From: Planctomycetota bacterium
Lineage (GTDB): Bacteria; Planctomycetota; UBA8108; SXIK01
DNA length: 64,000 nucleotides
Assembly (NCBI GenBank): GCA_965223265.1
Contig: OZ244999.1
Span: 3,392,001-3,456,000, forward strand
Direction of reading: 5' to 3'
Part shown: positions 28,474 through 60,288 of the stretch, one piece after another
Layout: each line of letters starts with the position of its first letter
Position numbering within the stretch: position 1 is the first letter of the stretch
The notes under the pieces: model-generated
What the model was told of the DNA's origin: nothing
Database searches by the model: none
What the model saw: the letters and a program-made list of their open reading frames with translations, nothing else
Program-made: the position numbers and the translations under genes

Positions 28474-28541
28474 GTCGAAACGGCCTCGGAATCCCCGCGA
28501 AACTCGTCCGGCCAGGCCGGCGCGAAATGGCCAAACTCGAG
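28472..28541 (+). mobile_element. MITE family A, right-end fragment with an intact (empty) TIR
   Basis: ...CCCGCGAAACTCGTCCGGCCAGGCCGGCGCGAAATGGCCAAACTCGAG is identical to 60241-60288. Confidence 0.85.
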
Positions 28542-28549
28542 TAGCTTAG

Positions 28550-28641
28550 CAGCCTGTTGAAAAAGTGCTTCGAGCTGAAAACTGGTCGCTTCGCGTCCAG
28601 ATCAGCCGCGGCGAACGCAGGTAATCTCCGAGATTTTCGAG
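28550..28641 (+). mobile_element. MITE family B, left-half fragment
   Basis: CAGCCTGTTGAAAAAGTGCTTCGAGCTGAAAACTGGTC...GAGATTTTCGAG matches the start of the 39898 copy. It is preceded by TTAG. Confidence 0.85.
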
Positions 28642-31625: not shown

Positions 31626-31662
31626 TCGAAGCGTGAACTCGAGTTTGGCCATTCGGTGCACC

Positions 31663-31766
31663 AAAGTAGCAGGCACACTCCTGTGTGCCGTCGCTCTTGT
31701 ACCGTGGACCGTGACCGTCACGGATTCGGAGGTCCGGACGGCACACAGGAGTGTGCCTGCTACTTT
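31663..31766. repeat. REP doublet (REPIN-like) forming a perfect 30-bp inverted repeat
   Basis: AAAGTAGCAGGCACACTCCTGTGTGCCGTC (31663-31692) and its exact reverse complement (31737-31766). Each arm is GTAG plus the internal palindrome GGCACAC-TCCT-GTGTGCC. Confidence 0.85.
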
Positions 31767-31871
31767 TCGGACAAAGAGTTCTTGAGCGCTCACAAACTTG
31801 CCCAGGGGAGCAAGAAGTGCGAAAGGCCTCTGAATCCCGCCGAACTCGTCCGGCCAGGCCGGCGCGAAACG

Positions 31872-33859
31872 GTAGAGTCGAGAGGTGGCGCAGTGGTTTA
31901 GGCCAAGGACTTTCCGTTTCCGGCTCTTTCGTCTGCCGGTGCCATATAGCCTCAGACCGTGCCCTGTTTCCACCTCCCGCTCATCAAACCGGACGTGCGG
32001 TTTTCCCGCATCCGGCTTTCGGACAAGGTTCATACTTTCGCCCACGGAAAGTTGCGCGTCCGCTCAGTGAGTCGGACTAGACCGAGTACGCGGTGCAGGT
32101 ATGTGTCGGGAAATCGTGACGTTCCTCGACCCGGCACTTTGTGTTTACGGCACAACCACTGACGCAGCCGGTTGCCGGCGTGCAAATCCACGGTGGCATA
32201 GGCCTTGCTAACAGGCCCAAGGCGGAAGTAGTTGGCCCAGCCGATCATGGTTCGGTTGAGTTCAGCTACGAGCTCCTTGGCGTCGCGGGTACTCCAGCGA
32301 CGGCTGGTCTTTTCACTAATCGTGCGACAAAGCCCCACGACCTTCTTCTTGGACGGGCGTGTGCCGATGTAGGCTCGACCCGTCTTAGGCGACCAGCACC
32401 TTCCCAGCGTGTAGCCCAGAAAGTCGAACGTCTCGTCCGGGACGCGGCATTGACGTGTCTTTGACTCGTTCACCGTCAGCTTCAGCCGTTGCATCATGTT
32501 CCTCATCACGCGCATGGCCTCGTCGGCACTGCCGCGACAGCAGATCACGAAATCGTCGGCGTAGTTGACAATTCGGGCGCGCAAGCGCCTCTGGTACCCG
32601 AGCACCTTCCAACCCACGATGAATCGTCGCATGTAGAGGTTACTAAGCAGCGGTGAGATCGGAGCGCCTTGCGGACAGCCCCGGCCCTCGTCCTTATTGC
32701 GCGTCGTTCGTTGTTTTCGACCCCGCTCGTCCGTCTCTTCTACCGGCGCGACAAGCCACATCTTGATCAGGTGCAGTACCTGTTTATCACTGATGCGACG
32801 TGCCACCGATTTCATGAGCTCGGTGTGTGGGATCGTGTCGAAGTAGCCGCTTAAGTCTGCGTCGATGACCTCTGTATGGCCAGTATTCAGTAGCGAGTGG
32901 ATCTTGCCTATGGCCTCCAAAGCGCTACGGTTGGGACGGTAGGCGTACTGCTCCGGCTGCAGGTCTGCCTCGAATATCGCTTCGAGGATCAGCACGGCTG
33001 CCGTCTGCACGACACGGTCGCGGATCGTTGGGATACCCAACGGCCGCTGCTTACCATTCGCCTTCGGAATATACACCCGGCGAACCGCTTGCGGACGATA
33101 CCTCTTCTCTTTGAGCTCCGTCGTCAGTTCGTCCAACCACCGCTCGAGACCTTCTCTCTCGATGTCTTCGAACCGCTCGCCGTCCACTCCTGCGGCTCCA
33201 CCGTTGGCACGGCAGCAGCGGTAGGCGTGTTCGAGAACGTCCGGTCGATACACCTTGTCGTAGAGGGCATAGAAACGAAAGTTGGGCGATTCCTTCGCTT
33301 TGGTATGTAACGCCGCCTGCAGCTTCCGAACCTTTGGTGGGGTTGGTAGGCTCATGCCAATCTCCCGGCTCTCATGGCTTCTGACGTTAGCCTTGAACTA
33401 AGGCCCCTTCCCTCGACCGGCATTACCCGGCGTCTGCGGTACTACGGGCCTATCCGCCGCCCTGGACGGCCCGGCCTGCTCCTCGCGGAGTTCCGGTTTG
33501 GCGCTCACGCCGCGCCACCGTCGGGGTTTCCCGTGTTGCATCGAATCTCCGTTGGCACGCATGCCATCGCCACTACCCCGGCAGGAACCACTGGATGCTG
33601 TCGCTCTTCTCGTCCATTGGTTGGCAGCCTTCCCCTGTTTAGCGGAGGGTCGGCTCCTGCATTGACTCTTTCGAGGCCTGCTCGGCGTTCACTCACGTTA
33701 CGGCCTGCGTGCTCGCTGGGTCGCCCAGCGACCCTTTTCCTGAAGTACTTCGACGTAGGTCGTTGCCTCCCTCCGTCGCTCCGGGTGCTACCGGCTGGAG
33801 CGACCAGTTGCCGGGTGGGATTCTCACCCACTGAGGATTCGTGCCTTTTCACGGCGTAC
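31872..33859 (-). mobile_element. Group II intron, full length (1988 nt)
   Basis: 5' end GTACGCCGTG at 33859. Domain V AAGCCGGATGCGGGAAAACCGCACGTCCGGTTTG (~32018-31985) has the AGC triad. Domain VI has a bulged A at 31878 and the intron ends ...CTCTAC at 31872. Joining the flanks restores the MITE TIR. Confidence 0.93.
32030..33355 (-). CDS. ltrA: Group II intron reverse transcriptase/maturase without an endonuclease domain
   Basis: RT0 'GAAGVDG', '[14 protein letters not shown]', '[16 protein letters not shown]', 'YADD', 'FDFLGY' and domain X 'GWANYF'. No C-terminal HNH motif. Confidence 0.97.
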
Positions 33860-33924
33860 GCCAAACTCGAGGTTAGGAGCGGATTCAGATCAAGCGCGGG
33901 CAGAGGGCAACGGACGTCCCGCGA

Positions 33925-35058
33925 TCAACCAGCGATCCGTTCCACCGCTTGCAACAGCGCTTTGATGTAGCCGTAGCCGAAGGCGAACCCCTGCAGCCCG
34001 CCTGGATCGTCTTTGTGACCGGGCATGTGGTCAGGCATGAGCATGTACTCGTAGTCGACTTCGTGAAGCGTCAGCGCGACCTCAAGCATGTCCATGTCGC
34101 CTTCGTCCGGGTACACCTCTTGAAAGTCGTCGCGCCGGCCGCGGATGTTGCGAAAGTGGATATTGAAGATCTTCTTTCGCTTGCCGAAGTACCGGATGAC
34201 TTCGTGGATCTCACGACGCGGGTCTTGCAGCATTTCGGCAGTTGTCCCAAGGCAAAGATTGAATCCGTGGTAGGGACTCTCCTCGATCGCGGCGAATCTT
34301 TTGAGCCCTTCGAACGTGCCAAGCACGCGGTCGATTCCCTGGTAGCCTTCCGGCGGCATACCAGGATCGTGCGGGTGACAAGCAGCGCGAATCTTGTATT
34401 CGTTACAGACAGGAATGATACGTTCGAGAAAGTACGTGATGCGTTCCCAAAAGATGTCGGCAGTGACGTGGCCGGCTCGAGTGAGCGGTGTCGGCGGCTT
34501 GGCGTCGCGCAGGCGCCACGTGCTGTACGAAGAGCCGCCGCGGCCGGGAGTGCGTTCAGTGCGAGGCACACCGAGAAGGCTCATGTTGTACTTCATAGCG
34601 GGAATGCCGGCGGCGGCGCAGTGTGCGATCATCTTTTGAATGTGCTCAATGTCGCGATCGCGCTCGGGGCTCTTTCCGAGCATGATGGCGCCCCGTTTCT
34701 CACGATCGATGTGGCTCGAACTAAGAAACGGCAATGCGACCATGTCGAGCGTGATGCCGTGACGTTCGCAAAGCTCGCGGGTTTTCTCCAGGTCTTCCAC
34801 GCTCCAGTAGCCACGTTCGCCGGGATGCGGCGGGTAGCCGCAGATGTGGTTGACGCCGTGGCGCTTGAAATACTCCAGCCGCTCCGGGGTGGTTCCTGGG
34901 CGCTGCGTGCCAACGTACATTTTGACTGGGCGCCTCGGCCGCGCGGGCGATCGGTCGGGGGTCGCCGCGCGCGTCGGCTTGTGCGCGGAAGTCGTGGCGG
35001 CTACGGCGGCTCCACCCAGTCCGGCAGTGGCGGTGGTGAGAAAGTCACGGCGATTCAT
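33925..35058 (-). CDS. uxuA: Mannonate dehydratase (UxuA family) with a Tat-like leader
   Basis: 'MNRRDFL', 'ACHPHDP', 'IHFRNIRG', 'DEGDMDM' and 'MPDHMP'. Confidence 0.82.
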   Translation of the reverse strand: MNRRDFLTTATAGLGGAAVAATTSAHKPTRAATPDRSPARPRRPVKMYVGTQRPGTTPERLEYFKRHGVNHICGYPPHPGERGYWSVEDLEKTRELCERHGITLDMVALPFLSSSHIDREKRGAIMLGKSPERDRDIEHIQKMIAHCAAAGIPAMKYNMSLLGVPRTERTPGRGGSSYSTWRLRDAKPPTPLTRAGHVTADIFWERITYFLERIIPVCNEYKIRAACHPHDPGMPPEGYQGIDRVLGTFEGLKRFAAIEESPYHGFNLCLGTTAEMLQDPRREIHEVIRYFGKRKKIFNIHFRNIRGRRDDFQEVYPDEGDMDMLEVALTLHEVDYEYMLMPDHMPGHKDDPGGLQGFAFGYGYIKALLQAVERIAG

Positions 35059-59853: not shown

Positions 59854-60031
59854 CAGTCCGTTGAGAAAATGCTTCGAGCCGAAAACTGGTCTCTTCGCGT
59901 CCAGATCGGCCGCGTCAAACGCAGGCAATCTTCGCGCCCTCTTCTTTCGATTCTGATGGCGAGTATTGACGCGGCCCGTCTGGGCGTGAAGAGGTCAGTT
60001 TCCTCGGCCGAATGACTTTTTCAATGGGCTG
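59854..60031 (+). mobile_element. MITE family B, full copy with a small internal insertion
   Basis: TIRs CAGTCCGTTGAGAAA and TTTTTCAATGGGCTG. The body is nearly identical to the 39898 copy. Confidence 0.88.
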
Positions 60032-60035
60032 TCAA

Positions 60036-60288
60036 CTCGAGTTTGGCCATTTCGCGTCGAGCCTGCGAACGCCAGGAGCGTCGAGGCCAAGGAGCGACGA
60101 CAACGCGATCCCGCTCGGGTCGTGGCGGAGGAGCGACGCAGGCATCGGCGCTCCTGGCGTTCCCCGAAGGGCCGGACAGGAGTTTTTGAACATGCACAAG
60201 GGTTCTCAGGGTACTAAAAAGTCGAAAGGGCCTTTGAATTCCCGCGAAACTCGTCCGGCCAGGCCGGCGCGAAATGGCCAAACTCGAG
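60036..60288. mobile_element. MITE family A, intact 253-bp copy
   Basis: Perfect 21-bp TIRs CTCGAGTTTGGCCATTTCGCG (60036-60056 and 60268-60288), with a GTCAA direct repeat on both flanks. Confidence 0.9.

Follow-up and report, generated by a model that had tools for sequence, protein, structure and literature searches.

The DNA analysed here, referred to as the window, is a 64,000-nucleotide stretch of contig OZ244999.1 from a Planctomycetota bacterium, and its central feature is a complete group II intron of 1988 nt on the minus strand (33859-31872). The intron splits one terminal inverted repeat (TIR) of a small interspersed repeat, a MITE (miniature inverted-repeat transposable element) that measures 246 bp without it, such that the outer 12 nt of the TIR form the 5' exon and the rest of the MITE, beginning CGTTTCGCGCCGGCCTGGCCGGACGAGTT when read from 31871 downward on the minus strand, forms the 3' exon. 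A gene of the UxuA family lies immediately upstream on the same strand, and two further pieces of the MITE family in the window carry uninterrupted versions of the same site. The coordinates of these features, and the positions of the other copies of the intron in the genome, are given in Table 1.

Table 1. Features of the window (nucleotide coordinates) and copies of the intron in the genome (Mb). IEP, intron-encoded protein; RT, reverse transcriptase; EBS and IBS, exon- and intron-binding sites; IS, insertion sequence.
Feature	Position	Strand	Basis or remark
Solo A-type MITE end, one empty target site	28477..28541	-	Inner limit approximate, by eye
3' exon, rest of host MITE (234 bp)	31638..31871	-	IBS3 = C31871; A-type subterminal sequence next; other TIR 31638-31658
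Complete group II intron	31872..33859	-	RF02003 and RF00029; boundaries from copies and homologues
Domains V and VI	31872..32020	-	RF00029
IEP, 441 aa, RT and maturase (X) domains, without endonuclease domain	32030..33355	-	Pfam, NCBIfam
EBS3 G287, within GGGGUAGUGGCG	33573..33573	-	Covariation with exon +1
EBS1 GCUAAAC, hairpin loop	33637..33643	-	Covariation in fixed register, and fold
GAG at position homologous to relatives' EBS2	33666..33668	-	Alignment with relatives; weak in window intron
Domain I, 5' part	33693..33833	-	Rfam D1D4-4 match
5' exon CTCGAGTTTGGC, outer 12 nt of MITE TIR	33860..33871	-	IBS1 = 33866-33860
UxuA-family gene	33925..35058	-	Pfam PF03786, E 1.6e-44; stop codon 65 nt upstream of intron, same strand
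Intact unoccupied 253-bp MITE, two empty target sites	60036..60288	.	TIR pair
Intron, window copy	3.424 Mb		Full length
Intron, copy c2	5.913 Mb		Full length; 98.7% identity to window copy
Intron, copy c3	3.516 Mb		Full length; 98.6% identity to window copy
Intron, copy c4	1.895 Mb		IS of about 1.96 kb interrupts nt 1775-1788; unrelated to intron
Intron, remnant	4.285 Mb		372 nt; nt 1-213 and 1830-1988 kept

When searched against Rfam at the gathering threshold, the intron matched RF02003 (group-II-D1D4-4) at 33833-33693 with 90.3 bits (cut-off 49, E 1.4e-18) and the domain V/VI model RF00029 at 32020-31872 with 45.4 bits (cut-off 40), all 77 positions of the latter model being covered. Its boundaries, which were set from five genomic copies and 60 homologues, give a 5' end of GUACG (GTACG in the DNA) and a 3' end of CUAC (CTAC), in keeping with the 3' AY of mobile bacterial group II introns. 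The intron is IIB-like and probably mobile. Without its open reading frame the ribozyme is about 662 nt long, which fits, as a resemblance only, the 450-700 nt quoted for IIE and IIF ribozymes (PMC3753933).

The IEP, whose frame lies in domain IV, matches the Pfam families RVT_1 (E 2.5e-36) and GIIM (E 2.8e-15), and scores 350 bits with the NCBIfam model TIGR04416 (cut-off 300). As the GIIM match ends at residue 410 of 441, the 31 residues that follow leave no room for a DNA-binding or endonuclease module, and no HNH or other endonuclease family was found in the protein by Pfam at E values up to 0.001. The frame is open in the window copy and in copies c2 and c3. Codons that differ between the lineage of the window copy and the others comprise 10 synonymous to 9-10 non-synonymous changes, and non-synonymous changes between the two lineages are fewer than unconstrained drift would be expected to give.

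The host repeat is small, multicopy and devoid of a transposase gene. Its 21-nt TIR, CTCGAGTTTGGCCATTTCGCG, has 85 exact copies in the genome and 149 with up to three mismatches. With up to two mismatches the 21-mer occurs 64+62 times, against 0+0 for a reversed control pattern, and the repetition is therefore not a product of chance. There are 45 inverted pairs of TIRs, spaced over 123-504 bp (26 of exactly 253 bp), in addition to 59 solo ends, and BLAST returned 43 near-full-length matches to the MITE with a median identity of 92.5%. Most of the 45 paired copies are flanked by 5-bp duplications of the CTAGC, GCTAG, CTAAC or TTAAC type, as judged by eye rather than counted; that of the MITE invaded in the window is imperfect (CTAAC versus TTCAC). 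Four elements of 1449 bp match the outer 14-mer of the MITE at both ends, and the one examined has an 18-bp TIR, a 5-bp TTAAC duplication and a 443-aa transposase matching NF049999 (IS701 family; 348 bits, cut-off 170) as well as Pfam DDE_5. The host repeat is therefore a true MITE, a non-autonomous derivative of an IS701-family element, with the 1449-bp element as its autonomous partner.

Two further observations concern this family. The MITE invaded in the window is a member of another, second subfamily, whose interior contains a long inverted repeat, GCAGGCACACTCCTGTGTGCC ... GGCACACAGGAGTGTGCCTGC (31662-31760); what it shares with the 253-bp subfamily is limited to the ends and the subterminal part of the A type. 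A third, very abundant repeat, ending GAATGACTTTTTCAACGGGCTG followed by YTAR, is found genome-wide, including at about 28542-28600 and 59990-60035 of the window. A 22-mer taken from it occurs 299 times in the genome with up to three mismatches, and 29 of these occurrences are followed within 12 nt by the end of a MITE or IS, the B-type side being the one abutted every time. The edge of the repeat therefore seems to be the target of the IS701 element and its MITEs, so that three layers are nested.

Excision of 31872-33859 in silico restores the TIR and subterminal sequence that are found uninterrupted at 28541-28501 and 60288-60248, with a single difference, G for A at position +2 of the 3' exon, exactly as the preliminary description had stated. 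The four empty GTTTGGC^C sites that it listed (^ marking the insertion point) are likewise present, on the plus strand at 31643 and 60041 and on the minus strand at 28535 and 60282.

A BLAST search of the 9.18-Mb single-contig genome with the intron recovered five copies, of which three are intact, one is broken by an IS and one is a remnant with an internal deletion; by tblastn, the genome held no other intron-type RT family except for one weak fragment. All five copies are flanked by CTCGAGTTT(G/A)GC^C(A/G)(T/A)TTCGCGCC, and hence share an identical insertion point, with the exon bases at +2 and +3 varying among them; the check for copies in unrelated targets, therefore, found every one at the same TIR position. 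The window copy differs from the others at 26-28 nt, copies c2, c3 and c4 differ from one another at just 1-2 nt, and the 372 nt of the remnant are identical to the corresponding parts of all three. The host MITEs, with the introns removed, share only 32.8-80.5% pairwise identity and fall into two subfamilies, compared with 98.6-100% for the introns. Because the hosts are far more diverged than the introns they contain, the insertions are independent rather than copies of one composite. This comparison shows five independent retrohoming events and points to a recent burst of four of them, together with one older lineage represented by the window copy.

Were a single ancestral MITE to have gained the intron, and the composite then to have been copied by the IS701 transposase, all five insertions would be expected in the same MITE end and orientation, as they are. 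Such passenger spread is nevertheless highly improbable given the gap in identity between hosts of two subfamilies, with different internal sequence, and the introns within them, and given the variation from copy to copy at +2 and +3 of the 3' exon; furthermore, a TIR split by an insertion should be poorly recognised by the transposase.

The two damaged copies have features of their own. The IS in copy c4 (genome 1896552-1898513) lies near the end of the IEP frame, has the ends AACTTCC.../...GGAAGTT and is flanked by a 13-14-nt duplication; a second copy, 99.9% identical, is found at 6866101-6868077. The remnant (genome 4285302-4285673) is located in a diverged MITE with the exon GTTTAGC and, lacking EBS1 and most of domains I-IV, cannot have inserted in its present form.

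The basis of target recognition was sought through comparison with relatives. A search for related loci covered 185,579 species, from which the best 80 loci of 580 confirmed relatives were taken; 60 of these 80 allowed the intron to be delimited at both ends, and the 20 without one defined end were left out. Among these best 80, the most similar IEPs, at about 71% identity, come from Acidobacteriota, Myxococcota and Gemmatimonadota metagenome-assembled genomes, followed by those of Bradyrhizobium and many Proteobacteria at 56-59%. An intron on plasmid pPL62-3 of Planctomyces sp. SH-PL62 has an IEP 68% identical, with GACATAA as its EBS1 facing the exon TTATGTC.

The candidate EBS1 of the window intron, GCUAAAC, pairs with the exon end GUUUGGC (-7 to -1) at seven of seven positions, one of them G-U. 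In a minimum-free-energy fold, which served only to place this hairpin, GCTAAAC at 33643-33637 occupies the loop, the local-fold z-score of -0.31 not being significant. When the register was fixed against a conserved 3' anchor, 57 of 61 sequences were usable (four were omitted since the anchor motif was missing or the exon too short), and the first four EBS1 positions were all paired in 44 of 54 distinct intron/exon combinations. Mean pairing was 3.5 of 4 positions as against 2.04 of 4 with shuffled exons, and none of 2000 shuffles reached the observed value. The window GCUAAAC starts exactly in the register of the homologues, and the exon of the remnant's host, GUUUAGC, converts the single G-U pair to A-U. 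Similarly, when each column of the alignment was compared in turn with exon position +1, intron nt 287 stood out: this column forms a Watson-Crick pair with +1 in 56 of 60 relatives, including 10 of the 11 in which +1 is not C, and the pair in the window intron, G287 with C+1, is of IIB type. The covariation therefore confirms as EBS1 the loop that the preliminary description had picked out, and places EBS3 at G287. Neither site, nor the sequence around it, varies between the full-length copies.

For EBS2 the situation is different in the window intron and its relatives. The latter display pairings of 4-5 bp between EBS2 and IBS2 that covary, as judged by eye. A conserved CUCGA at 33674-33670 was considered as EBS2 and rejected, being invariant in relatives whatever their exons. 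EBS2 has been described as dispensable for the self-splicing of IIE and IIF introns (PMC3753933).

It is thus very probable that the element is an endonuclease-less mobile group II intron having as its natural homing site the TIR of an IS701-derived MITE family. The central proposal of the preliminary description, that the intron uses a non-autonomous repeat family as its target, is borne out by five of five copies at one TIR position, acquired through independent events. The excised intron RNA, bound to the RT/maturase, would recognise the TIR through base pairing, EBS1 with the seven exon nucleotides at -7 to -1, G287 with C+1 and an EBS2-like contact of at most 3 bp; it would then reverse-splice between TIR positions 12 and 13 and be copied into DNA. 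As the IEP lacks an endonuclease, this copying is probably primed at replication forks.

Alternatively, the intron might enter any site resembling GUUUGGC^C, with only the harmless insertions at MITE ends persisting. The uninterrupted sequence GTTTGGCC occurs 216+223 times in the genome, only 110 of these being in the counted TIR ends, and no octamer outside a TIR is occupied; bacterial group II introns have also been reported to lie generally outside housekeeping genes (PMC4424553). However, if the octamer were the only rule, all four GTTTGGC^C-flanked copies would fall in TIRs with a chance of about 0.25^4 = 0.004. Three full-length copies and the remnant are 0-2 nt apart, leaving little time for other insertions to have been purged, and no intron fragments were found elsewhere in the genome. 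Survivorship of this kind is accordingly an unlikely explanation, with only a small share of the probability.

A number of observations weigh against homing to the TIR as the natural and continuing habit of this intron. The first is the 5' end: mobile bacterial group II introns have a conserved GUGYG terminus, and GUACG is a variant at position 3 of the intron. All five genomic copies begin GUACG; the 60 end-defined homologues and the Planctomyces plasmid copy all begin GUGCG, and three further relatives from the same phylum begin GUGCG or GUGUG. The proliferation of near-identical copies argues, indirectly, that the variant is tolerated. The second is the EBS2-like pairing, which by eye amounts at best to 3 bp, GAG with CUC at exon -12 to -10. 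The third is occupancy, as just 5 of roughly 154 TIR ends hold an intron, none of the 40 exact ends of the B type described below is occupied, and, by a comparison of coordinates, all four IS copies have ends free of the intron.

The remaining points are comparative. The window TIR serves as the exons in none of the 60 end-defined relatives, nor in the plasmid copy, nor in the three same-phylum relatives. In forty related genomes nothing close to the intron was present, the only matches being to other group II introns, at 68-97% identity across short segments; among 400 sampled genomes of the phylum there were three related introns, all in other targets; and scans of metagenomes for the 5' and 3' exon-intron junctions gave no matches. 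The association of intron and TIR is known from one genome only. The TIR itself was detected in two of the 40 related genomes (one and three matches), without a transposase at the two loci inspected.

The relatives nearest in sequence have the ribozyme architecture, EBS1 loop and register, EBS3 position and IEP domain set in common with the window intron, but each has its own EBS1/IBS1 pair; the plasmid copy and the three same-phylum introns obey the same EBS/exon pairing rule with other targets. Whereas the usual length is about 1.99 kb, the homologous introns at loci L005, L063, L071, L076 and L077 measure 3.3-5.8 kb, and L063 and L076 have extra internal matches to the 5' and 3' parts of the intron, which suggests nesting of introns within introns or other insertions. 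The introns at L068 and L071, both from Methyloglobulus records, are followed by 3' exons of evident homology, CGAACTTCCCAAAATGGTTGATATGAGCCA and CGACATTACAAAAAAGGTTGATATTAGCCA, so that the lineage may have homed into repeated sequence more than once.

Low occupancy also bears on whether a past burst has left behind only immobile relics, either throughout the family or in the case of the window copy at least. The disruption of one copy by an IS and the loss of EBS1 from the remnant through internal deletion would be expected of a decaying family, as would the 26-28 differences that set the window copy apart and the unusual GUACG end. On the other hand, three 441-aa IEP frames remain open, EBS1, EBS3 and their surroundings are unchanged in the full-length copies, and the 0-2 nt separating four of the copies imply very recent movement. 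Extinction is on balance improbable, though with a better claim than survivorship, and the intron may be active at present.

The distribution of the insertions over the available ends was analysed by sorting the 149 unoccupied ends by subterminal sequence. There are 63 A-type ends (CCGGCCTGGCCGGACGAGTT), 42 of them exact from -12 to +1; 50 B-type ends (TCGAGCCTGCCAGCGCC...), of which 40 are exact; and 36 other ends with various subterminal sequences, 19 being exact. All five introns are in A-type ends. The suggestion that each element offers two sites consequently stands insofar as both ends carry the target sequence, but not as regards usage, which is confined to the A-type end in five of five insertions. 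The probability of this outcome is (47/106)^5, about 0.017, or about 0.03-0.04 when strand bias is allowed for, making the A-end preference suggestive only. The pattern reflects either a role for sequence or context outside the 21-bp TIR or a low level of activity.

A-type and B-type ends share one sequence between -12 and +9 but not beyond that interval, and three candidate determinants can be named. One is an orientation-specific flank arising from the transposon's own choice of target: C at -13 is present in 31 of 42 A-type ends versus 10 of 40 B-type ends, a difference that follows from the orientation-specific insertion of the MITE, and at four of the five occupied sites. Another is a GC hairpin at +10 to +22 of the A-type end. 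The last is G at exon position +2 (31870 in the window, and its equivalents), which marks 3 of 5 occupied sites as opposed to 11 of the 149 empty ends (post hoc Fisher test, p = 0.005); among relatives G occurs at +2 in 24 of 55, a mild preference. Such a G could be favoured in the target, could have arisen in connection with insertion, or could be a chance result of repeated looking. With only five insertions to go by, these patterns suggest determinants beyond the TIR. It is conceivable, if doubtful, that the intron is specialised on one MITE end, with recognition reaching beyond the classical -20/+5 window or depending on context, in a three-tier chain where intron insertions act as a brake on the MITE. 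Were this so, the arrangement would be a chain of site-specific parasites, from the abundant repeat that the MITE targets to the IS701 element and its MITEs and thence to the group II intron, and every copy of the intron would pin down one end of a transposon and thereby restrain the MITE family.

Strand and transcriptional context were considered as further influences. From GC skew, replication begins at about 7.96 Mb and terminates at 3.544 Mb, so that the sense strand is on the lagging-strand template in the four burst copies and on the leading-strand template in the window copy. The bias of four in five is not significant, since exact empty A-type ends are already distributed 26 to 16 in that direction. 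The MITE family is itself oriented with respect to replication, the counts for the lagging-strand template being 26 to 16 for exact A-type ends and 13 to 27 for exact B-type ends.

The position of the intron just downstream of uxuA, on the same strand, was reproduced, the stop codon of the UxuA-family gene preceding the intron by 65 nt. No terminator-like sites were found on the minus strand between 31400 and 34200, and read-through from this gene may express the intron. Upstream of four of the five copies, a co-oriented stop-to-stop frame of at least 333 aa lies within 158 nt; there is no enrichment for read-through, as a frame of at least 200 aa is likewise found within 200 nt of 19 of the 42 empty A-type ends. 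The UxuA-family protein, which also matches a xylose-isomerase-like TIM-barrel family, begins MNRRDFL... followed by an alanine-rich stretch, resembling by eye a twin-arginine export signal that would be unusual for a mannonate dehydratase.

In contig-level sequencing runs from two studies, the intron contigs have about four times the depth of their flanks. Junctions are never bridged by at least 31 nt in these contigs and no joint removing 31872-33859 is seen, the runs being uninformative on empty alleles and splicing. Insertion would be expected to cripple the invaded MITE end in DNA, and splicing of the intron to restore the TIR in RNA.

The intron can be regarded as one genomic parasite with the end of another as its landing pad. 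More than 100 near-identical targets, mostly intergenic and in both orientations on one chromosome, suit it to defining the rules of strand, context and sequence in endonuclease-independent retrohoming, and the unused, identical B-type TIRs constitute a ready-made control pointing to unrecognised target determinants. It is also a natural system for asking whether one selfish element limits another by splitting the end to which its transposase binds, and illustrates the retargeting of EBS1, through which an intron lineage widespread across phyla has adopted a host-specific repeat.

Bacterial introns have been described as often residing amid other mobile DNA (PMC4424553). No publication in which a MITE or TIR serves as the homing site of a group II intron was found in the full-text literature, in a search of incomplete coverage that excluded supplements. 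Physical nesting of an intron and a MITE has been reported in Candidatus Thiomargarita nelsonii, where a MITE lies inside a group I intron within a gene (PMC4853749). As there described, the nesting is the reverse of that found here, where a group II intron is inserted in the end of a MITE, repeatedly and site-specifically. Group IIC introns likewise insert at repeated, intergenic and structured safe sites, behind terminators or attC sequences (PMC1702495), and are characterised as lacking EBS2, having a short EBS1 and reading a stem-loop in the 5' exon (PMC3753933). Set against this account of the IIC class, the window intron has a 7-bp EBS1 pairing to a defined sequence and no conserved 5' stem-loop.

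The closest parallel is RmInt1, which has already established that an intron without an endonuclease can home into a transposable element present in many copies. RmInt1 homes into the multicopy ISRm2011-2 of Sinorhizobium meliloti, of which strain 1021 is reported to have 13 homing sites, three of them invaded, with use of the lagging-strand template (PMC1802570). The IEP of the window intron is about 34% identical to a match from an S. meliloti plasmid intron, which is not confirmed as RmInt1. As far as the published description of RmInt1 extends, the two systems are alike in the absence of an endonuclease, the multicopy transposable target and its partial occupancy, and the burst copies match the lagging-strand pattern, although the four of five observed here are not significant. 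Unlike the RmInt1 target, which lies in an autonomous IS630-type element, the site used here is the TIR of an IS701-derived MITE, split between positions 12 and 13, and of two identical TIRs in each element a single one is used. The present case therefore differs from that of RmInt1 in having as its target the TIR of a non-autonomous MITE, with more than 100 empty copies and insertions at one end, within a larger nesting of mobile elements.

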